Positions 5,023-18,676 of a stretch of 20,000 nt of DNA are shown here, in pieces. The stretch is from an uncultured virus (IMG/VR IMGVR_UViG_3300025936_000003). Its lineage: Duplodnaviria; Heunggongvirae; Uroviricota; Caudoviricetes. The translations under genes were made by a program, and so were the position numbers. Numbering within the stretch: position 1 is the stretch's first letter; each line of letters begins with the position of its first letter. The stretch lies in IMG/VR virus record IMGVR_UViG_3300025936_000003; one strand, given 5' to 3'. Under the pieces are notes generated by a model. That model was not told the origin of the DNA and made no database searches. It was given only the letters and a program-made list of their open reading frames with translations.

Positions 5023-5614
5023 GGCCGCGAAGGGATCAGACTTCGAGCGCGAGTTGTGCAAGCGTCTCTCCTTGTGGTGGACAGATGGTGAGAGAAACGA
5101 TATATTTTGGCGCACCTCCCAATCAGGTGGGCGTGCTACCCAGAGGTCAAAGAAGGGAGAGACCACGTTTGGAAGCTACGGGGATCTGACAGCGATTGAC
5201 CCCATTGGCTCTCCACTCATTAAGATGTTCACGATCGAGTTGAAGCGTGGATCCTCATACGGCACGCCGGGTGACCTGCTCGACTTCAAACCAATCAATT
5301 CAAAGCACCCTTGGGTGGTGTGTCTCAAGCAAGCGATTCGTAGTCATGAACAAGCAGGTAGTCTCGCTTGGATGATGATTTGCAGACGAGACCATCGCCT
5401 GCCGATCGTGTATCTAGAAGCGAGGATCCTTAGGATGTTGAGAGGCGACAGCGGTCCAATATCAAGTGACTCCAATTTCGTGAAATTCTATTTGACCATT
5501 AAGCAGGAGTCCCTGGGATTCGACCGTATCTGCTTCACAGGGCTCCCACTAGAATCCTTCCTTGAATCCATTAGTCCCAAACAGATAATAAGAACGGTCA
5601 AAGGCTACAAATGA
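5015..5614 (+). CDS. Holliday junction resolvase, Hjc-like PD-(D/E)xK nuclease
   Basis: KGSDFERELCK, F.R...SGG, GDL and IELK motifs; recombination-module context. Confidence 0.8.
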   Translation: MPKAAKGSDFERELCKRLSLWWTDGERNDIFWRTSQSGGRATQRSKKGETTFGSYGDLTAIDPIGSPLIKMFTIELKRGSSYGTPGDLLDFKPINSKHPWVVCLKQAIRSHEQAGSLAWMMICRRDHRLPIVYLEARILRMLRGDSGPISSDSNFVKFYLTIKQESLGFDRICFTGLPLESFLESISPKQIIRTVKGYK

Positions 5615-5982
5615 GCAAACCCAAACTCAAAGCACTAGGGAAAAAAGTCACCAAGTTTGAGGGTCTGGAAGTATTCCCAGCCCCAAGCGGGATCCAGAGA
5701 GTCATCTGCACCTCCGATGAGGTGACTGCTCTGTGCCCGGTGACTGGACAGCCAGATTGGTACATCGTCAAGATCGACTACATCCCTCAAAAGCTCTGCG
5801 TTGAATCGAAAACACTCAAGCTCTACCTGCAATCCTTCCGGCAGCAAGGTCACTTTTGTGAAAGGTTCTCCAGCATCATTGCTCACCAGATCCTGAAGAC
5901 CCTCGAACCCTTGAAAGTGTCAGTCACAGTCACCCAGAAACCACGCGGCGGTATCGCCATCGAAGCCACCACCTGCTTATGA
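5611..5982 (+). CDS. queF: PreQ0 reductase QueF (unimodular T-fold)
   Basis: EVTALCPVTGQPD (catalytic Cys/Asp), QueF motif ESKTLKLYL and C-terminal PRGGI; adjacent to queC. Confidence 0.9.
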   Translation: MSKPKLKALGKKVTKFEGLEVFPAPSGIQRVICTSDEVTALCPVTGQPDWYIVKIDYIPQKLCVESKTLKLYLQSFRQQGHFCERFSSIIAHQILKTLEPLKVSVTVTQKPRGGIAIEATTCL

Positions 5983-6665
5983 AAAAAGTCTTAGTCCTCA
6001 CTTCGGGCGGAGTAGACAGCACCACACTCCTTTACCATCACGTTAAGGGAGGTGACGAAGTCCAAGCCATCGCTTTCAACTATGGCCAGCGGCACAGCAA
6101 AGAACTTGAATATGCTCATCTCAATGCGAACCTGTTGCAAGTCCCTTTCACACTGGTAGACGCATTATTCCTGGGGCGGATCTTGACCGGCAGCTCGCAG
6201 ACCGATGCATCGGTTCCCGTGCCGCAGGGTCACTACTCTGAAAACTCGATGAAGGCGACTGTCGTTCCCAACAGGAACATGATCCTCTTGTCCATCGCTA
6301 TCGGCGCCGCTATCGCAAAGAAGCTGGATTATGTCGCCTACGCTGCCCACGCGGGCGACCATGCCATCTACCCAGACTGCCGACCAGAGTTCGCCAGGGA
6401 CATGGGCAGGGTGGCAAGCAAGTGCGATTGGAGGCCCATAAAGCTCTTGAGGCCATTCGTCAAGATGAGCAAAGCCTGGATCATTGGTCACGGGAAAGAG
6501 TTGGGTGTGGACTATTCCAAAACCTGGAGTTGCTACGAGGGAGGCGCTTTGCACTGTGGCCGCTGTGGAACTTGTGTCGAACGGATTCTCTCCTTCAAAG
6601 AAGCGAAGGTTGACGACCCTACCACCTACCAAGATCCAGAGTTCGCAAAGCAATACGAGAAATGA
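5979..6665 (+). CDS. queC: 7-cyano-7-deazaguanine synthase QueC
   Basis: PP-loop SGGVDSTT, YGQRH..E, VPNRNMILLS, YPDCRPEF and Zn site TWSCY...HCGRCGTCVER. Confidence 0.96.
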   Translation: MKKVLVLTSGGVDSTTLLYHHVKGGDEVQAIAFNYGQRHSKELEYAHLNANLLQVPFTLVDALFLGRILTGSSQTDASVPVPQGHYSENSMKATVVPNRNMILLSIAIGAAIAKKLDYVAYAAHAGDHAIYPDCRPEFARDMGRVASKCDWRPIKLLRPFVKMSKAWIIGHGKELGVDYSKTWSCYEGGALHCGRCGTCVERILSFKEAKVDDPTTYQDPEFAKQYEK

Positions 6666-7724: not shown

Positions 7725-7939
7725 GAAAGATTCTCCAAGACACTGACCCCATGCCGTATGGCAAGCACGGACCCAACGGCACCGAACCCTGCATGATGCA
7801 GGACGTGCCGGCGCAATACCTTCATTGGCTTTGGGTGAATGGTTTGAAGAATGAAACGAAAACTTCAAACGTCGCTGACTACATCCAGCGCAATCTCGAA
7901 GCCCTCAAGAAAGAATGGCCCGACGCTATTTGGAGCTAA
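7721..7939 (+). CDS. Small DUF3820/ExoX-C-terminal-like protein
   Basis: MPYGKH...MQDVPAQYLHWL matches the MPFGKY.G....DVP..YL.W motif. Confidence 0.7.
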   Translation: MRKILQDTDPMPYGKHGPNGTEPCMMQDVPAQYLHWLWVNGLKNETKTSNVADYIQRNLEALKKEWPDAIWS

Positions 7940-8487
7940 GGAGTGAATTGAACCTCTACCAGGCTGACGCGAGCTGCCCAGTGGAACTCCGCAGCTGAGT
8001 AGTTGGTGGCTGTTACCCGGATCCTCAATGAATCATGTCCCGTATCGGCATCCACTTGAGGATCACCGAAGGTGTTAGACTCGTCACCGGCAAGCACAGT
8101 CACAGTCACAGTAGGAGCCTTCGCCTTCGCCGGGTCGAATTTCCCAGCTGTGCTGTAGGAAGGATTGGTGGCATCCCAATTATCAGTGATCTTCACCGTC
8201 CCATCGTTATTGTAGATGGCTCCGGTGATCTTCCAAGCCCCGGCGACTGCCGCTGCGGCTCCTCCTCCACCCGTCCAGCTCAGCAGCAAGATTTCAAACG
8301 CCCAAGCTGTGTCCAGCGGGATGGTCAATCTGGGATCTGACTCATCCTCCATCAGCAATTCAGTTTGGGTGTTGTCTGTCGTGGTAGCTGTCAGAAGACA
8401 CTCAAGGCGAACTGCGCTGATCATCTTGTTGAGCTTCTCCCGAACCGAAAGCCCCTGCTCGTTATTTTCAATTGGTTCAATATTCAT
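7936..8487 (-). CDS. Putative tail fibre / virion accessory protein (183 aa)
   Basis: Start revised to ATG 8487 (ATGA overlap with the upstream stop). N-terminal IENNEQGLSVREKLN and a beta-rich C-terminus ending HWAARVSLVEV; last gene of the tail operon. Confidence 0.6.
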   Translation of the reverse strand: MNIEPIENNEQGLSVREKLNKMISAVRLECLLTATTTDNTQTELLMEDESDPRLTIPLDTAWAFEILLLSWTGGGGAAAAVAGAWKITGAIYNNDGTVKITDNWDATNPSYSTAGKFDPAKAKAPTVTVTVLAGDESNTFGDPQVDADTGHDSLRIRVTATNYSAAEFHWAARVSLVEVQFTP

Positions 8488-8633
8488 GATTGGTCCTTCC
8501 AGTAAAACCGGTCCACCCACTGTCCTCTATCGTCCCACGTTCCTTTTGCGAGAATCCAAAACGGACCGGTCACGAGCGTCGTGCAACCCGCAAACAACGA
8601 CAAGAGAATGATGAATTGGCGACGATTAATCAT
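8484..8633 (-). CDS. 49-aa twin-arginine lipopeptide with Trp-rich motif
   Basis: ATG 8633 overlaps the end of the tail tip gene. MINRRQFIILLSLFAG-C has RRxF and a lipobox. Its TGA overlaps the next ATG. Confidence 0.65.
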   Translation of the reverse strand: MINRRQFIILLSLFAGCTTLVTGPFWILAKGTWDDRGQWVDRFYWKDQS

Positions 8634-11160
8634 ACCAAAATTCACCATCCAACCAGTAACCGTCATCATTCCAAGTGGTGTCCTCAAGAATCCAGAAGAG
8701 ACTGATTTCTTGGATCCAAGGACCCTGCCCGTTGTTGATGCCCGCGACCCGAACGTAGAGTGTGCCCGGCAACACAGGCAGCGCGATCGTCGGCCGGGTC
8801 ACTGTCCCGCGATTCTCCCAGCTTGTCCCGTCCACCGACGTTTGGACAATGTAGCTCTGGGCGCCTAGCGCAGGCGGCCACGTTGCGACAATGTTGGACT
8901 CTGGAACATTCGTCCTGGTGAGGTAAAGAGCTTCAACGACAGGGAGGTCAGGCATCACCGGAGGAACTGAAGGAGTTAAGAGAGGTGGTGCGTCTTCATC
9001 ATCAAACGTGTGAATGATAGGAGCGTCATTCACCAAAGTGATACGAACCCTCTCTCCTCCCTGGGGCTCCATCTTGACCACCTTCCCATACTTCGTGACA
9101 TTCCCTGTTTTGCCGAATAAGAACAGCATCGGCTCTGACGCCCCGCCCAGCAAGAAATCAGGTTCCTCATCCAGCGTGACAACGACTTGCTTTGAGTCAG
9201 GAGTCTGGGTGGCAGTAACAGGACCGATGATATCACCTCTCTTGTCCCTCAAAAGGATCTGGTAGGTGAAGCCATCTTCAAACACGAGTGGTTCAGACAC
9301 GTAGAGGAGGTAATCATCACCCACCTTATCCACTGACACGATGAATCCTGACTGACCCCACTGAGGAAGGTCATGACTGATAGCAACCAAATCTCCATAA
9401 CTAGGCAAGAATCCTTCCATGCCTGTCTCGAAAGTGATGTTCTCCCTCAGATACTTTCGAGACGCGAGCATGTAAAGACCTTCATGGTAGGCGTGATCAC
9501 GATTTTGAATGCCTGGAAAGCGAATATCTTCAGGATTGTCGCTTGTGCCACCCGGCAGTGTGGCTATTACTTGCTCTTGCTTGTAGCCTGTAGCAACCTC
9601 AGTGTATTCAATTGAAACACTGTCATGGTCGGCTGGCTCCCACAATTTGATTTGCCATTCGAAAGACCCCTTGACGATGTTCTCAGGGGTGAACATCGTA
9701 ACGGGCAGCGTCAAGGGACCATCCCTTTTCAAAGTGACAAGGGATCCCACCAGCATCGGCAAACCTCGGCCTACCCGCGCTACCATCCTAGCTGCGTCCC
9801 ACACTGTGAGAGGATCTCTGAAAGTCCAGTCGAAATGCTCACCACGACTCTCGTAAAGGGAGTCGAGGGCCTCAAGAGCATCCCAATCGTAGAAGTTTTC
9901 ATCTACCAGCCGGCCACCATAGTTGGCATTCCTGAATATATCAACAAAAGCCCAGATGATAGACCGAGTGGCAACCGGAGCACTGAATCCACCCGATTCA
10001 CGAATAGGAAGTTTGCGCGTTGCGATGACGTTGAGCTTCCTCTGGGTATTAGAATTCAGGTTGCTGGTGGCTCTAATCTTCACCGCCACCATTGTGAGAT
10101 CTCCGTAATCCGGCTCGTCACCATCTACAAATCCTCTCAGGCCCTCCCAAATGGTCTCGCTTTGGGTTCGTGCATCAATGGTGGCTGTGCTTGTCCTGCG
10201 AGATCTCACCTCATAACGCCCCAAAGCGACATCTACCGAGTAGGTGATTCGTTGGGCCGTTGTGGTAGCCATCGTGATCGAAGGTGAAAAGATAGTAGTC
10301 CATCCTCCCAAAGGAGCCCCGGCATTGTCAATCAGTCTTGCCTGAACCTCGAAAGCGATGGTGACAGTTTCCATCCTCCCTTTATTGCTCTGGTGGTAGA
10401 CACCTCTGGGAAAGATGATGTCAACCTCTATGCGAAAGATTTCAGTTCCTGAACTGTTCGCCGGAAAGGGCCCGATCCATCCATCCGGAAGAGGGTAGTT
10501 TGCTTCACCTGGCTGGTAAAGGATCTGTGACGCAACTTCAACAGAAGTCTGCACGTTGGTGTGGAACAGGGTGGTGCTGTCACCCGGATCAAGAAGCTCC
10601 CAGGTCACTTCTTCATACTCGCTGATCTCCGTATCACCTATGCGAATCTCATCGACCTCATAGGTGCCCTGCCCAACACAATAAAGAGAGAACTGAAACT
10701 GGTCATTGTCCACGTAGCGAAAGAAAGGACGGGCGGCGAAGGACGGGTAGATCCGATTGCGACCGTAATTCACCTCAATAGGCTCACCTAAGCGAATATC
10801 GTTCTGCTGCCCTTTAACTGAGAACACCGGGTCGGACGCCGGCAAGGCTCCAGGAACGGTAGGGGTCAAAACCAACGCAAGCACGATGGCGAGCACGATG
10901 GCGACGATAATGATGATGGCGGCAACCCAGCCTGCTACCACCACAAAATTCACAATGTCGTTTGGCCTGATCTCCCTGTCCCAGTCTCTCCTTAGAACAG
11001 GTTCACCATTCACCAAGCAAATGGTAGGATCCGTGAATTCGATGAAACCTGGATAGGTCGTCTGGAGCCATCCCCTGATTGAGATCCCACCAGGATGGCA
11101 GTGCTTCCTCAGTCCCTCAAACGGCTGAAAAGGATTCTTAGTCTCAATGATGAACGCCAT
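8626..11160 (-). CDS. Tail tip / host-specificity protein (lambda gpI+gpJ-like, TipJ family)
   Basis: About 844 aa. N-terminal gpI-like domain plus hydrophobic helix, then N..RLGEPIEVNYGRNRIYP, CVGQG.Y, GRYEVR.RR, L.SYGDLVAISHD and a C-terminal FN3-like domain. Follows the NlpC gene. Start may be 11160 (ATG) or 11166 (TTG). Confidence 0.9.
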   Translation of the reverse strand: MAFIIETKNPFQPFEGLRKHCHPGGISIRGWLQTTYPGFIEFTDPTICLVNGEPVLRRDWDREIRPNDIVNFVVVAGWVAAIIIIVAIVLAIVLALVLTPTVPGALPASDPVFSVKGQQNDIRLGEPIEVNYGRNRIYPSFAARPFFRYVDNDQFQFSLYCVGQGTYEVDEIRIGDTEISEYEEVTWELLDPGDSTTLFHTNVQTSVEVASQILYQPGEANYPLPDGWIGPFPANSSGTEIFRIEVDIIFPRGVYHQSNKGRMETVTIAFEVQARLIDNAGAPLGGWTTIFSPSITMATTTAQRITYSVDVALGRYEVRSRRTSTATIDARTQSETIWEGLRGFVDGDEPDYGDLTMVAVKIRATSNLNSNTQRKLNVIATRKLPIRESGGFSAPVATRSIIWAFVDIFRNANYGGRLVDENFYDWDALEALDSLYESRGEHFDWTFRDPLTVWDAARMVARVGRGLPMLVGSLVTLKRDGPLTLPVTMFTPENIVKGSFEWQIKLWEPADHDSVSIEYTEVATGYKQEQVIATLPGGTSDNPEDIRFPGIQNRDHAYHEGLYMLASRKYLRENITFETGMEGFLPSYGDLVAISHDLPQWGQSGFIVSVDKVGDDYLLYVSEPLVFEDGFTYQILLRDKRGDIIGPVTATQTPDSKQVVVTLDEEPDFLLGGASEPMLFLFGKTGNVTKYGKVVKMEPQGGERVRITLVNDAPIIHTFDDEDAPPLLTPSVPPVMPDLPVVEALYLTRTNVPESNIVATWPPALGAQSYIVQTSVDGTSWENRGTVTRPTIALPVLPGTLYVRVAGINNGQGPWIQEISLFWILEDTTWNDDGYWLDGEFWYD

Positions 11161-12058: not shown

Positions 12059-13036
12059 CTAGCGCCTCAATGTCCTTGTCCTGACGGTGCCGCTGTATCC
12101 TGAAGTTCCAGCCGCGTTCTGCGACAGCGTTCTGTATAAATAACTCGTGTCCCTTTTCAGACCTGTGTCCGCAAGGAAGCCGTCACCTGGCCGCGTTCCA
12201 ACCTGCGCGAATGAACGACCGTCACGTGACCTCTCGATCAACACCGTCCATGCCTGTGAATCCCAACTCACGTCAATCCGAGACGTGCTCACCGGAACCG
12301 CCCGAAGCCCAGACGGCGGCAGCGGCGCGGTCGGTGGCGCATTGGTACCAACCGTGAATAAGGTGAACGTGCTCGCCGTCCAGGTGCCCTGGTTATCTTT
12401 GACGACGATATAGGCCGACCATTGGCCATTCGTCGGCAAGGCCACCCAAGTCCCGTTGATACCTAAAGCAGTGTTCCCTTTGAGTGTCTGCGGCGTGATG
12501 GGAACTAGATCAACATGAGGACCGTCGGCTCTCGTGCCTCCAGGTGGGAGCAGTGTGAGCGCGCCGTCAACCAACATCAAATCGCCCGCGCCGTCATTGC
12601 GGATCACCGCGCCGATGTTCACCGACGATCCCACCGTCACGTTGGTCGTGCTCATAGTCGGTGGAACGAGTGTCAGTATCGGACTTGGTGACGGCACTGG
12701 CGGCGGGACGTTGGTGTAGACATTGCTCTGAAAACTCTCGGCCGTCTGGCCGTTCTTCGTTTCATAGGCCGTGAGTGTGAAAACCATTTCAAGATTGGTG
12801 CTCACCTGCACCGTTGCGTTGGTCTGTGTATTCGGCATTGACACTACCACTCCCCAGGGCCACGGCGGATTGCCCGTCGCGGAGTATAACCTCTGTCCCG
12901 TGACGTTCGTTAACGGGGTTGGGCTTAGGTTCCACACCAGGTTGACCGTTTCGCCCATTGCGTTTGGGTACCAGTTGAACGAACTTACCATACCAAGAAG
13001 CGCCAGCCACAGTGATAAACGGCTCTGTTGCCCCAC
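12059..13036 (-). CDS. Exported FN3/Ig-like repeat protein
   Basis: Hydrophobic segment RLSLWLALLGMVSS followed by ETVNLVWN. Pro-rich linkers, an Ig-like middle domain and a C-terminal FN3 (PSGLRA..VSTSRIDVSW...IERS.DG..F...DTGL...T.Y.YR..SQN.AG.S.YS). Start uncertain: GTG 13036 preferred, ORF extends to 13162. Confidence 0.75.
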   Translation of the reverse strand: MGQQSRLSLWLALLGMVSSFNWYPNAMGETVNLVWNLSPTPLTNVTGQRLYSATGNPPWPWGVVVSMPNTQTNATVQVSTNLEMVFTLTAYETKNGQTAESFQSNVYTNVPPPVPSPSPILTLVPPTMSTTNVTVGSSVNIGAVIRNDGAGDLMLVDGALTLLPPGGTRADGPHVDLVPITPQTLKGNTALGINGTWVALPTNGQWSAYIVVKDNQGTWTASTFTLFTVGTNAPPTAPLPPSGLRAVPVSTSRIDVSWDSQAWTVLIERSRDGRSFAQVGTRPGDGFLADTGLKRDTSYLYRTLSQNAAGTSGYSGTVRTRTLRR

Positions 13037-13178
13037 GCCGTTCTCGAAGCCTGATCCGCTGGCCGGTTTGCTGGTCGAAGAACTGAACGCGCCATCGGAT
13101 TCTCTGATTGTTGATGACATTGGCGTTGAGTGGTGAGGAGCCGTCGAATGGTCGGAATTCATAAAACCCAGGGATCAT
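12789..13178 (-). CDS. Possible hypothetical protein overlapping the FN3 gene (129 aa)
   Basis: Starts 10 nt after the upstream stop and fills an otherwise unexplained gap. The first ~45 codons have protein-like composition with C-ending codons (TTC GAC, ATC AAC, ACC GGC). Confidence 0.45.
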   Translation of the reverse strand: MIPGFYEFRPFDGSSPLNANVINNQRIRWRVQFFDQQTGQRIRLRERRGATEPFITVAGASWYGKFVQLVPKRNGRNGQPGVEPKPNPVNERHGTEVILRDGQSAVALGSGSVNAEYTDQRNGAGEHQS

Positions 13179-13188
13179 TTTTCATAGG

Positions 13189-13326
13189 TTATGTTGCCAG
13201 GTTTCCCAAGCCAAGCCACTCGGCAAACTTTATTGCGGCTGCAACCACGACCGTCATCACCACTGCAATGACCAATATGCCAATGGCTACAGTCGTCCAA
13301 TCCCAATCAGGTTGCTTGTCGTTCAT
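13189..13326 (-). CDS. Small single-pass membrane protein (45 aa)
   Basis: ATGA overlap at 13323-13326. MNDKQPDWDWTTVAIGILVIAVVMTVVVAAAIKFAEWLGLGNLAT. Confidence 0.65.
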   Translation of the reverse strand: MNDKQPDWDWTTVAIGILVIAVVMTVVVAAAIKFAEWLGLGNLAT

Positions 13327-14168
13327 GGTAGCGTCGTCACCCGGACCTTGTGCCAGTTCGTGTAAAGATTGCCGCACTCCGTGGCAGTCAGCTCGCGCGA
13401 GTAAATCAGGAGCGACTCCAAGTTGCCCAGGAAGAATTGTGTCGTCCCACCAAAGGAGCCGATCACGTTGATACCAATGTCGGCCACCAACGCCGTGGCC
13501 GGGTTCCCAATATCCGAGATATTCTGCCGAAATTGGGCCTTGTTCCCCGACGAGTAACGAAAGAATCCGACGCCAGCATTTGTGCCAGAGAAACTGTTCG
13601 GGTTCGACGATGGGAAGGCTGTCCCGTCATACTCGAACCACTGGGCCCCTGGAGTGTCAATCCTGATTCCTCCAGCACCCGCCCCTGTTTTACTAATTAG
13701 ATATTTCGTGCCTGAACCGCCGTTGTAGGACCAGAGCCCAATCACCGTGAAACCGCTGGTTATACTGAGCGTGATCGTGTTGCTGATGCTGAGCGTGTCC
13801 GTAGTCCCATCAAAAACCAAAGCGGGTTTTGCCCCTGCTGCGTTGGTTCTCCAGGTCGGCCTCGCTGTACCTGATGCTGTGGCGACGTTTCCAGACTTCA
13901 GATCGACCCAAGTAGAGACTGGGTCACCGTCGTTCAGGGTTGTGATCGAATCTGCTGTCCAGATATACACCAGTCCTGAGATCGTGTTTGGGTATCCAAT
14001 TGGATCAGACGCCGCTGAGCCACCTAGCTTCATGCGTGGTCCAGGCACGATTGTCGTTGACGCCTGAACCGTTCCGATCCTTTGCGGCAACCAAGTCTCC
14101 GGCACACTGACGATGATTGTGCTGGCCAGAGTGCAAACCGCAAAGAACTTGACGAATGGATTCTTCAT
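13323..14168 (-). CDS. Signal-peptide protein with LamG/concanavalin-A-like lectin domain
   Basis: N-terminal MKNPFVKFFAVCTLASTIIVSV, then W.AD.I....G..V..W.D, P.W, FDGT.D.L and F.G......IYSREL motifs typical of phage LamG-like domains. Confidence 0.75.
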   Translation of the reverse strand: MKNPFVKFFAVCTLASTIIVSVPETWLPQRIGTVQASTTIVPGPRMKLGGSAASDPIGYPNTISGLVYIWTADSITTLNDGDPVSTWVDLKSGNVATASGTARPTWRTNAAGAKPALVFDGTTDTLSISNTITLSITSGFTVIGLWSYNGGSGTKYLISKTGAGAGGIRIDTPGAQWFEYDGTAFPSSNPNSFSGTNAGVGFFRYSSGNKAQFRQNISDIGNPATALVADIGINVIGSFGGTTQFFLGNLESLLIYSRELTATECGNLYTNWHKVRVTTLP

Positions 14169-15646
14169 TGTGTGCTCCCATAACTGATGACGAGGGGTCC
14201 TGAAAAGCTGACGGCTGTGCTGGCATCAGACCCATCCCTGGCCAACCTGATCGTCCACATCTGGCCAGCCGTGACGTTGCTGTTCCAGTTCGTGAGGACA
14301 ACGTTGCTGATAGTTTCCACGTCGCCTGATGCGCCCGAAGCGTCACCGGCAAACGAGAGTGTGACCGAAGTGCTCAATGACGGCGAGTCGTAGGGGTTGC
14401 TGTCCGCATCGCTTTTCATCGTGAGGACGTAGGAGTGCGCCGCCGTGTCCGCTGCGCCAAGGCGAAACTTGAACCGTTCCACCTTAAGGTTAACTCCCGT
14501 ATCTATATCCTCAGGTACCGTCAGGCGATACTCGCAATAGTTGGTTGTGGTGGCTCCAGCCGACGCGAATATGACCTGACCGAAAGTGGCAGCCGTGTTG
14601 GTCGTATTGAAGACAGCTCCCGTGCCCTCGACTGAATGAGGCGAGGGAAAGACGAGGTAGTTCTTGGTCTTGAGCGAGTGACTGCCGCCGTCTGCCGTGG
14701 TCTGAATCGTTCCAAATCTCGCGGCAGCGAGTGTGCCGCTGGATAGATCGCCGGCGCTTCGCGTGTCCAAGTCAGCCAAGCTACTCCCCGTCTTGCTGAC
14801 CTTTGACCAGCCTATCGCCGCGCTGGCGCTGATCTGCGCGTTCGCCAAGTTCGTCGGGTTAACGGTGAGGTTGGTTGTGCCGCTGACCCCCACGACGGCA
14901 GTGCTGGAGTCCTGTAAGTTGGCAATGGGCATCTCCGTTCCATTGGCGCTGAAAACGGTCGCGGCTTTGCCGTTAACCTTGATCGTGTTGCTGACGTTGA
15001 CCACTGAGACGTTCTGGGTGGTGACGTTGATCGTGGTGGCATAAAGGTTCGTGATGAATACATCAGAAAAGTTGGTTGACCACGCCAATACCCCATTTGA
15101 GACGACCAGGACAAACCCCTCGGAGCCCATCGGGAACCTCCGCAAATGGGACCCGTCATAGTAGAACAAATCTCCCGCCGATCCGACGATCGCCCCAAGG
15201 TCTTTGACGAGCGCCGGGAAACGGTTTGTGTCCAGGGTGCCGCTGGTAATCTTTGACGCAGCGAGCGAAGGGATATCCGCTGCCACCAAAGCACGCAAAC
15301 TGGAAGCTCCCGTCATACCATCAGGAGTAGCAAGGACTTGGTTCGCCGACTGCCCGGTGGCAGCCGTGACTGCAAAGGTACCACTTGAGGTGATTGAGCT
15401 CGGCGATACGGACAGCCAAGAAGGAACAGTCATACCTACACTCGTCACCGTCCCAACTCCTCCCGCTGTGCTGTCGACGTATCCCTTGGTGGCAAGGTCG
15501 CCAGACAGAGTAGGTGTTGCTGCGTTGGTGGCTTTGAATCCACCCATGTTCAGATCGCTTTGCAGCTTCCCATTGTTGATGAGAAAGGGAGTCACAGCGG
15601 CGAAAGCCAATAACGGGAAAAGGAATATCAATAGAATCTTTTTCAT
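14165..15646 (-). CDS. Tail-fibre-like protein carrying a classical Sec signal peptide (493 aa)
   Basis: MKKILLIFLFPLLAFA signal peptide; fibre motifs PT.SGDLATKGYVD, GTVTSVG, LVAADIPSLAASKITSGTL and GDLFYYDG...W; beta-rich C-terminal domain. Confidence 0.75.
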   Translation of the reverse strand: MKKILLIFLFPLLAFAAVTPFLINNGKLQSDLNMGGFKATNAATPTLSGDLATKGYVDSTAGGVGTVTSVGMTVPSWLSVSPSSITSSGTFAVTAATGQSANQVLATPDGMTGASSLRALVAADIPSLAASKITSGTLDTNRFPALVKDLGAIVGSAGDLFYYDGSHLRRFPMGSEGFVLVVSNGVLAWSTNFSDVFITNLYATTINVTTQNVSVVNVSNTIKVNGKAATVFSANGTEMPIANLQDSSTAVVGVSGTTNLTVNPTNLANAQISASAAIGWSKVSKTGSSLADLDTRSAGDLSSGTLAAARFGTIQTTADGGSHSLKTKNYLVFPSPHSVEGTGAVFNTTNTAATFGQVIFASAGATTTNYCEYRLTVPEDIDTGVNLKVERFKFRLGAADTAAHSYVLTMKSDADSNPYDSPSLSTSVTLSFAGDASGASGDVETISNVVLTNWNSNVTAGQMWTIRLARDGSDASTAVSFSGPLVISYGSTQ

Positions 15647-16493: not shown

Positions 16494-17600
16494 TCATTTG
16501 ATGGCGAAGAAAGCTGAGAAGGTTGAACCATTCGGAGGGTCCGACTGAACATCCACGAAGCCATCATATTTGGTGGCGATCGTCCTCACCGTCGATAGTC
16601 CAATACCTGATCCCTTACCAACAGGCTTGGTGCTGAAGAAGGTCTCAAACATCTTCCCCATCACTTCAGGGGGCACCCCGCTGCCGTCATCCCTAACAGA
16701 AATCTTGACGAACTTGCCTGTGTATAAAAAACCACCCACGTTAGGTTTGTAATCTCGGATGTCAACATCTTCAGCTCTCACCTCAAGATGAGTGGCCCCG
16801 GCATCCTTTGAGTTGATACAGAAATTCAGAATGACTTGACGGATGACAGTTGGGTCAATCGCAATCACCGCTTCTGTCGTGACCTTAGAAGTGATCGTGG
16901 CTGTGGGGATGATACCAGGAAGGAATTGAATAAATTCTAAAACGACCTGGCGCATTGAAACATTCTCTTTGTGCCCGTTCCTCCCGGACACGAAAAGCAT
17001 CATCCTGTCAATCATCGCGACGATCCTATCGGCCGATCGCTGAGCCCCCTTGAGGAGTCCCATCTGGGCCTCAGGAACGTATCTCTCAAAAAGGTGGAGA
17101 ATCCCCATGATAGGAGTGAGCATGTTTCGCATGTCATGGGCAAGACCTGAAGCCACTTCTCCTACCGCTGCCTGGCGCTGAGCCTCCAGAGCGATGCTCT
17201 GAGCTTCCAGAGCCTCTCTCTGCGATTGCTGCAAGTTTCTCAATCTCTCTCGATCACGAATAGCCCGGCGGATTGCCCAGCGCAGACGGTGAGGACGATC
17301 CTTCAGCATCACGTCATCAATGTCCTGTGCCTCCAAAGGCGGAATCATATCATCGGTGATGGTTCCTGAAAAGATCAGGACAGGGATTTCGGGCCACTTC
17401 TTGCGTGCTTCGACGGCAGCGGCAATCCCACTCCAACCTGGAATGGCATAGTCCAAGACAAGAATATCGAAAGGTCCCTTATCCAGTGCCTCACTGAATT
17501 CCGTCTTATTCTTAGCCACAACCAATTCAGCCCCCTCAGGCATAAAGCGCCCAGTGAGAACGACATCAAAGTCGGCATCCTCCAGCAATAGTATTCTCAT
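16494..17600 (-). CDS. Hybrid histidine kinase (receiver-HisKA-HATPase), no sensor domain
   Basis: Receiver: RILLLED, LVLDYAIPG (phospho-Asp), IFSG, LKD. H-box LAHDMRNMLTPI, N-box QVILNFCINSKDA, G1 DDGSG, F/G2 FETFFSTKPVGKGSGIGL, and GSTF. Confidence 0.95.
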   Translation of the reverse strand: MRILLLEDADFDVVLTGRFMPEGAELVVAKNKTEFSEALDKGPFDILVLDYAIPGWSGIAAAVEARKKWPEIPVLIFSGTITDDMIPPLEAQDIDDVMLKDRPHRLRWAIRRAIRDRERLRNLQQSQREALEAQSIALEAQRQAAVGEVASGLAHDMRNMLTPIMGILHLFERYVPEAQMGLLKGAQRSADRIVAMIDRMMLFVSGRNGHKENVSMRQVVLEFIQFLPGIIPTATITSKVTTEAVIAIDPTVIRQVILNFCINSKDAGATHLEVRAEDVDIRDYKPNVGGFLYTGKFVKISVRDDGSGVPPEVMGKMFETFFSTKPVGKGSGIGLSTVRTIATKYDGFVDVQSDPPNGSTFSAFFAIK

Positions 17601-18038: not shown

Positions 18039-18221
18039 TCACAACGGATCTCGAGGTTGAGCTTCAGGCTTCGAGAAGACCTCCTTCTCGTGTGCTTGGT
18101 AGGCTGCTTCACCTTCCGGAGTCAGTTCTCCGTTCTTCCTCAGGGTGTCCACCCACGATGGGGCGTTGCGGAGGATCCAACGGGCCGTTTCCAGCAGTGC
18201 GAGTAATTCAGCTTCTTTCAT
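18039..18221 (-). CDS. Small hypothetical protein (60 aa)
   Basis: ATGA overlap with the lipoprotein gene; amphipathic helical sequence. Confidence 0.7.
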   Translation of the reverse strand: MKEAELLALLETARWILRNAPSWVDTLRKNGELTPEGEAAYQAHEKEVFSKPEAQPRDPL

Positions 18222-18676
18222 GGTACCTTCGCTTTCCTTGTGGCTTCTGCCAGGTGTTTAGATGCGGATAGCAAAGCATCGTCTACGAGTTTCAGCGCCG
18301 CCTTCAACTTATCCCCGTTGGTGGCACTCCTTTCCTTTTGGTAGTCGGCGATGGCCGCCGACAACTCATCCAACCACTTCGGCCCGTTCCTGCGAACCTC
18401 CTCAGCCGCTTTGTGGATACCAGGACTGAGTGCTTTGAGGGTCTCTTCGTTGTGAGCCTCAATCGTCATCAGTCCGTCGAATACATCCAGCGCGATCTTG
18501 CGGGTGTTCTGCGCGGTGACTACGAGCACGTCGGCCATCTCATTCGTGTTGTAGACCCCTGTGGAGGGGTTGTATTGACCCTTTCCAGCAAGACACCCGC
18601 TGTTACATCCAGCGATTGTCAACGCCATGACTACGATCACGAGACCTCCCATGATCCGTTGTTTGATTTGTTTCAT
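18218..18676 (-). CDS. Helical lipoprotein (152 aa), possibly lysis/spanin-associated
   Basis: GAAAGG SD; basic n-region, hydrophobic h-region and lipobox TIAG-C; mostly helical mature part. Confidence 0.75.
   Translation of the reverse strand: MKQIKQRIMGGLVIVVMALTIAGCNSGCLAGKGQYNPSTGVYNTNEMADVLVVTAQNTRKIALDVFDGLMTIEAHNEETLKALSPGIHKAAEEVRRNGPKWLDELSAAIADYQKERSATNGDKLKAALKLVDDALLSASKHLAEATRKAKVP

Follow-up and report, generated by a model that had tools for sequence, protein, structure and literature searches.

What does a phage gain from a gene of 49 amino acids (aa) that sits between its tail tip gene and a fibre gene and encodes a tryptophan-rich peptide much like the one that ends the tail tip protein? 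This question arose in a stretch of 20,000 nucleotides (nt), hereafter the window, which is the last 20 kb of the 77,034-base contig IMGVR_UViG_3300025936_000003 of an uncultured member of the Caudoviricetes. As the contig has a terminal repeat of 127 bases, it is probably a complete circular phage genome. Our preferred answer, held with a probability of roughly 0.45, is that the small gene may supply a socket peptide that, late in infection, ties the neighbouring fibre to the envelope of the host, and that the related peptide of the tail tip mounts the same fibre on the virion.

The small open reading frame (ORF) begins MINRRQF and has a lipobox with its cysteine at residue 17 (coordinates of all features are in Table 1). 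It overlaps both neighbours, by 8 nt where its ATG meets the tail-tip stop and by 4 nt where its stop meets the ATG of the fibre gene. Homologues occupy the same position in two relatives, L002 (55% identical) and L143 (84%), and the lipobox is retained in all three copies. Ratios of nonsynonymous to synonymous substitution rates (dN/dS, Nei-Gojobori) for the whole gene were 0.34, 0.29 and 0.25 in the three pairs, each computed over only 47-49 codons, and dS was about 1.3-1.5 in two of the pairs. By region, dN/dS was 0.17-0.32 in the motif and 0.26-0.57 in the signal. Since it is conserved and under purifying selection in these comparisons, we take the small gene to be real. The original prediction had read here an ORF of 49 aa with RRxF, a lipobox and four Trp, 12 of 23 residues identical to the tail tip, and all of this was confirmed in the sequence. 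Selection at the protein level, which it had also proposed, was borne out by the dN/dS values; different codons encode 6 of the 12 shared residues. A longer TTG start (67 aa; 61 aa in a protein collection), which overlaps the tail-tip gene, was passed over for the ATG that the relatives keep. Two further candidate homologues, L022 and L145, proved to be spurious matches in wrong frames. No family in Pfam, PHROGs or NCBIfam matched the small gene, and a fourth lipobox copy was not found in 5.8 billion proteins, 1.84 billion representatives, viral contigs or metagenome contigs.

The two 23-residue peptides of the window match without gaps (39/69 nt identical), with four Trp spaced 7-6-6 in each. 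Among the 153,932 six-frame 23-mers of the 77-kb genome, the next-best match to the tail-tip peptide shared just 7 of 23 residues, and the likeness of the two is therefore not due to chance. Within the 21-residue core the window copies have 10 residues in common, and either copy shares a median of 10-11 core residues with 93 distinct copies from other viral loci. Because 10 of 21 is the family median, neither copy was specially copied from the other, and their likeness is, on this comparison, one of family membership and not of recent copying. A recent duplication as the origin of the small-gene motif was rejected on the same ground. The claim that the peptide copies the tail tip was thus overstated, as the motif is widespread and neither copy stands out within it.

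A degenerate DNA scan located this motif at 120 viral loci (about 580 stretches estimated) and 81 genome loci spanning Alphaproteobacteria, Bacteroidota, Verrucomicrobiota and other phyla. Its consensus, W-I-L-x4-WxDxGxWxDx3WxD, consists of a leading Trp and three 6-residue W-x-D repeats, the repeat positions having been fixed by the scan pattern itself. The motif ended within 6 residues of the stop at 113 of the 120 viral loci. Carriers, most of them labelled by reading their sequences, include tail tips, nozzles, distal-tail proteins, LysM-like proteins in which as many as three copies stand in tandem, a class of 600-aa Bacteroidota prophage proteins and many ORFs of 37-90 aa. Neither this motif nor the partner motif described below had a usable family model in Pfam, PHROGs or NCBIfam, or a sequence match in the PDB. 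At three loci (L152/L153 and L070) the motif ends a distal-tail-like protein; in L152/L153, where the tail tip also carries it, this would make a second fibre site.

In most small carriers the N-terminus is a Gly/Leu strand (M-x-L-G-L-G-L-like), and they are located after a gene of 80-120 aa, one of which weakly resembles the head-spike base of the Rhodobacter capsulatus gene transfer agent (RcGTA; E-value 0.06). That base, a pentamer of Rcc01079, binds an I-A-L-G-L-G-L-G-L strand of the head fibre Rcc01080 (PMC7296036). Given that the upstream gene weakly resembles a spike base which binds such a strand, these small carriers are probably head-spike adaptors, and the strand start shared by many of them suggests five-to-three adaptors. 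The window peptide has a lipoprotein-type start instead.

The gene that follows a motif carrier begins very often with a second motif, I-x-N-G-E-S-G-x-S-V-R-x-K-L-N, hereafter the partner motif; the window genome has two Trp motifs and one partner. A two-fold cross-validated profile identified an adjacent partner gene at 66 of 120 viral loci, a number that near-duplicates may inflate since the training rows came from the same loci. Broken down by carrier, the partner was adjacent in 35/38 small carriers, 31/45 others and 0/37 of the Bacteroidota class. Of 706 non-adjacent viral ORFs just one scored, namely the same gene with its reading begun at an earlier start. At the 81 genome loci, a few of which duplicate viral ones, the profile trained on the viral set detected an adjacent partner gene in 43 (23/27 for small carriers). 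Five of 388 non-adjacent ORFs scored there: two coincided with the adjacent gene, and the other three were a gene located farther along. Of the suggestions in the original prediction, the third, that the peptide offers the downstream fibre another place to dock, is the best fit to this comparative evidence. Repeated cassettes, each a motif ORF of 44-60 aa plus a fibre with the partner motif, occur twice per contig in Prosthecobacter and related genomes (L204/L205, L259/L260, L240/L249). Members of the Bacteroidota class (L031, L034, L042 and similar) end in a basic variant of the Trp motif, and no partner gene stands next to them. Theirs may lie further off, as in L228, which has one about 300 bases on; in L026 and L132, of the same kind, a longer partner look-alike follows.

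In a cleaner test, loci were chosen by homology to the tail tip protein (J) alone. From 46 such loci we removed 7 partial matches, including the window's own genome, and 7 of the remaining 39 had an open J end. All 32 scorable relatives were concordant: 11 had both the Trp motif and the partner, 21 had neither and none had one part alone, in a set with three near-duplicate pairs, one locus of doubtful frame (L168) and one that repeats a training row (L171). A quick tree of 29 J rows needed 4 label changes, 3 of them forced by well-supported branches, and L158, which has both parts, nests among sisters with neither. The J search of genome contigs returned zero relatives. An out-of-sample case of the association was observed in the cultured Roseobacter phage CRP-143 (OR420748.1). 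Its Trp motif lies in an internal nozzle loop (gp36 residues 698-721, 31 bits), and among the 21 proteins scanned gp52 alone has the partner motif (15.8 bits), about 14 kb from the loop gene.

The downstream protein is, according to its model, a short fibre. The model (mean predicted local distance difference test score, pLDDT, 69.5) has a helix at residues 15-23 and a beta-sandwich, with residues 1-25 under 50. Foldseek matched it to 7xy1 (E-value 1.2e-4), and structure comparison to the C-terminal domain of the Kp9 tail fibre (Z 9.5, root-mean-square deviation 3.1, 114 residues aligned). The top six structure matches were all phage fibre, tailspike or baseplate chains; C-terminal domains of Acinetobacter tailspikes were likewise among the best matches and collagen- or YadA-type viral fibres matched too, and these matches suggest that the fibre is trimeric. 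Three relatives of the sandwich bear other N-termini, so the first 25 residues appear to be a swappable attachment piece.

Features of signal peptidase II lipoproteins (positive n-region, hydrophobic core, lipobox with Cys) were present by inspection in all three copies of the small protein. RRQF, at the boundary of the n- and h-regions, and A-G-C are fixed, and the hydrophobic core is free to vary. The lipobox and twin-arginine start of the original prediction stood up to this extent; assignment to Tat (twin-arginine translocation), however, is borderline from spacing and profile score (PMC2945643, PMC13673990). An ESM Atlas search gave weak Tat-signal look-alikes alone, under 0.9. Modelled by itself, the mature peptide was poor (pLDDT 64, predicted template modelling score 0.26), and its model had no fold match; to be a folded Tat passenger it would have to bind a cargo.

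Export of tail appendages looks real in this clade, judging from gene starts. Two appendage-like tail genes of the window (14165-15646 and 13323-14168, minus strand) encode products that begin with signal-like peptides. Their homologues in L166 and L153 do so too, with an RR motif in those of 13323-14168. Two partner-motif fibres elsewhere (L195, L214) have a Sec-like signal directly upstream of the partner motif. Signals on the appendage genes and fibres were called by inspection and a simple heuristic. Just past the predicted cleavage site, a hydrophobic-P-G-P strand is common to the appendage products of the window, L166 and L153, loosely like T-T-L-V-T-G-P of the small peptide.

We hypothesized the following mechanism. 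The conserved small gene, under purifying selection and overlapping both neighbours, would provide a Trp motif that is likely to act as the socket in which the N-terminal helices of the fibre trimer sit. Three W-x-D steps of 6 residues each fit a three-fold partner well: they would wrap the trimer base, the conserved Asp meeting the Arg/Lys of the R-x-K-L-N helix of the fibre and the Trp packing into the helix grooves. The signal is likely to be exported, lipidated at Cys17 and cleaved. A doubtful but still conceivable further step is that the RR motif lets Tat carry the peptide-fibre complex out together, given a fibre that lacks its own signal and a mature peptide too small for folding. Speculatively, tethered fibre heads might then be staged so that at lysis they pass to the tail-tip site, which is more acidic, or might mask a host surface sugar on cell debris. 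The membrane tether in its full Tat-carrier and hand-over form, which we think unlikely, is that the 33-residue lipid-anchored peptide grips the folded trimer in the cytoplasm, draws it across the inner membrane, holds the fibre beside Sec- and Tat-exported appendage proteins and hands it to the tail-tip socket at lysis, so that part of tail assembly would take place outside the cytoplasm.

Fibre docking loops are a known kind of structure. In Pseudomonas phage Pa223 a loop of the tail hub gp59 arranges three Trp into a pseudo-three-fold surface on which the base of a trimeric fibre sits (10.1101/2025.06.11.659172). As in the motif described here, one chain offers repeated Trp and the loop is acidic with W-D steps; unlike it, the Pa223 loop is internal and has three Trp spaced 7-7, whereas ours has four, is portable among many carriers and has a predicted lipid-anchored form. 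The two are not sequence relatives: against the motif profile gp59 scored -0.5 bits, and against the partner profile gp60 scored 1.0 bit. Single-chain loops also dock at the N-terminal helices of trimeric fibres in E217 (gp45 attachment loop; PMC10329688) and Mu (gp48 residues 133-155; PMC11915804), the Mu loop being, like our motif, 23 residues long. Both belong to myophage wedge proteins, PDB sequences matched neither of our motifs, and the available parts of the two papers describe no stand-alone or lipoprotein form of such loops. In T4, gp7 binds the N-terminal domain of gp9/gp10 (PMC3004832). The partner motif is shorter than that domain; 5 of 54 members matched phrog_677 (E-values 0.003-0.1), the window's own not among them. 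One member matched 168 phage records at E-values up to 10, and the 40 listed were nearly all annotated gp9. T4 gp7 did not match the Trp motif. Export by Tat of a folded, signal-less partner on a signal-bearing subunit is established for HybOC and PaoABC (PMC4273604), and the small peptide would by analogy carry the fibre in this way. Those examples are host enzymes whose carriers are large and folded; carriage of a fibre trimer by 33 residues of phage peptide is hypothetical. A search of the main texts of open-access papers yielded nothing on this motif pair, its lipid-anchored form, or signal-bearing or Tat-exported phage fibres.

Several observations weigh against the tether and its Tat step. 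The lipopeptide cores are basic (+1 and +4), where the tail-tip copies of the same phages have -6 and -7 and the family averages -2.5 (positive in 2/93), and weak or lost binding is possible; a basic core could also mean a weaker, releasable grip or a membrane-facing surface. The Bacteroidota class has no adjacent partner at any of its 37 loci. Across 70 non-redundant motif pairs, neither residue covariation (mutual information sum 13.6 vs. 13.0 +/- 0.5 shuffled) nor charge correlation (r = -0.09) exceeded shuffles. The fusion of motif and lipobox was found in three related phages only: RR plus lipobox was seen in 0/38 small viral carriers and 0/57 small database proteins with the motif, and no lipobox form appeared in the genome-locus listing (by inspection, two small database carriers, P0056 and P0057, start Tat-like and Sec-like, respectively). 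L152/L153 have signal-bearing appendages and lack the small gene, which must therefore be dispensable. From the second Arg to Cys there are 11 residues between, 12 positions apart, which is at or below the range of 12-21 given for Tat lipoproteins of haloarchaea (PMC2945643). Finally, TIGR01409 (cut-off 16.7 bits) scored 15.6 for one of the three copies (P0005) and had no match to the other two (P0001 and P0007).

We weighed the tether against four other explanations. The N-terminal half could be a hydrophobic anchor into another part of the virion, adding a second fibre site on the particle by analogy with the small carriers that probably sit on head spikes. The 35 of 38 small viral carriers that precede a partner gene do so without any lipobox, many of them after the 80-120 aa gene noted above, and L032 has the same order of motif-ending gene, small motif gene and fibre. 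We nevertheless find such an adaptor unlikely: all three copies keep RRQF, an unbroken hydrophobic core and A-G-C in place of an alternating Gly/Leu strand, and no spike-base-like small gene lies upstream in the window. Were the protein instead a plain lipoprotein of the general secretory (Sec) pathway that meets the fibre after lysis only, it could work as a sink in the membrane, binding surplus free trimers before they take up receptors on new host cells. The short, strongly hydrophobic signal and borderline Tat features fit this, as does the translational overlap, which would match the peptide dose to the fibre. Plain Sec export, however, would not need RR-x-F, which is invariant in 3/3 copies across dS above 1, and we judge a sink to be distinctly unlikely.

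The original prediction had put first a receptor block or superinfection decoy like T5 Llp, a disulfide-bonded lipoprotein (Cys11-Cys58) that binds the FhuA plug and whose gene adjoins pb5 (PMC9586334). Like Llp and Cor, the window protein is a small predicted phage lipoprotein beside a host-recognition gene, here a fibre-like one. Superinfection exclusion by direct receptor block is nonetheless highly improbable. The entire conserved mature part is a predicted virion docking motif that tracks a fibre N-terminal motif across phyla and not one host receptor; all three copies have a single Cys where Llp has a disulfide, the gene is overlapped inside a tail operon, and no family match was found. 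Further, on a finished virion the tail-tip socket would have taken up the base of the fibre already, leaving the peptide to act on free fibre alone, which argues against a decoy for incoming phage as well as against a receptor block. That the gene is a decaying duplicate of the tail tip, as the prediction allowed, or an ending kept for the ribosome-binding site of the next gene, is largely refuted. It is true that the fibre gene has a Shine-Dalgarno-like site within the final W-K-D codons. However, dN/dS is below the value near 1 expected of decay, the window copies are not close duplicates, and the motif is also known from internal loops, where the nearest stop is 59-282 residues away, and from triple repeats in tandem.

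In loci from several bacterial phyla the motif pair has the look of a joint for trimeric fibres that is portable and can be recognised from sequence, and it could annotate many genes now called hypothetical. If the lipid-anchored form is true, the phage places a fibre socket on the host membrane. If Tat does carry the fibre along, this would be a route for signal-less virion parts into the periplasm, and would bear on where phages with signal-bearing fibres complete their tails. CRP-143, with the two halves of the joint on distant genes, offers a cultured bench system.

Table 1. Features of the small gene and its neighbours (positions in the window)
Feature	Position	Strand	Basis or remark
J-like tail tip protein, 844 aa	8626..11160	-	phrog_469, phrog_31, PF13550, PF24801
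Trp-repeat motif, tail tip C-terminus copy	8629..8697	-	sequence comparison; core net charge -6
Shine-Dalgarno-like GGTGA, 8 nt 5' of small gene ATG, within tail-tip codons	8642..8646	-	sequence
49-aa gene, predicted lipoprotein signal and putative Trp-repeat docking peptide	8484..8633	-	homologues L002, L143; dN/dS 0.25-0.34
Predicted signal peptide, residues 1-16 (RRQF, hydrophobic core, lipobox)	8586..8633	-	RRQF and L-x-A-G-C invariant 3/3; core residues swap among hydrophobics
Cys17, predicted lipidation site	8583..8585	-	invariant 3/3
Trp-repeat motif, small-protein copy	8493..8561	-	sequence comparison; core net charge +1
Shine-Dalgarno-like GGAAGGA, 6 nt 5' of fibre ATG, within last W-K-D codons of small gene	8494..8500	-	sequence
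Short fibre, 183 aa, N-terminal helix and tailspike/fibre tip beta-sandwich; both motif copies probably pair with it	7936..8487	-	model, Foldseek, swapped N-termini
N-terminal partner motif of fibre, residues 6-21	8425..8472	-	29 bits, sole copy in genome; weakly like T4-type gp9 N-termini

The minus-strand block to which these genes belong is a long-tail module: distal-tail-like genes, DUF1833, NlpC/P60, the J-like tail tip (E-value 1.9e-134 to phrog_469 and 6.5e-82 to phrog_31, plus PF13550 and PF24801), the 49-aa ORF and, last, the 183-aa gene. Sequencing runs containing the stretch are labelled rhizosphere or soil metagenomes, with no RNA dataset among those listed. Contigs of four DNA runs showed no sequence variants in it, the full gene being covered only in X9, in two pieces.

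Other genes of the window include queF- and queC-like genes (5611-6665, plus strand), which make a 7-deazaguanine DNA modification possible. On the minus strand, within the late operon, are a probable exported fibronectin-like protein (12059-13162; labelled from its sequence, no Pfam match), a receiver plus histidine-kinase gene (16494-17600) and a clear lipobox protein (18218-18676). The tail modules of two related phages contain a prepilin-like gene (L166:6458-6826 and L153:13181-13558; TIGR02532 above cut-off), whose style recalls that of Verrucomicrobiota pilins.

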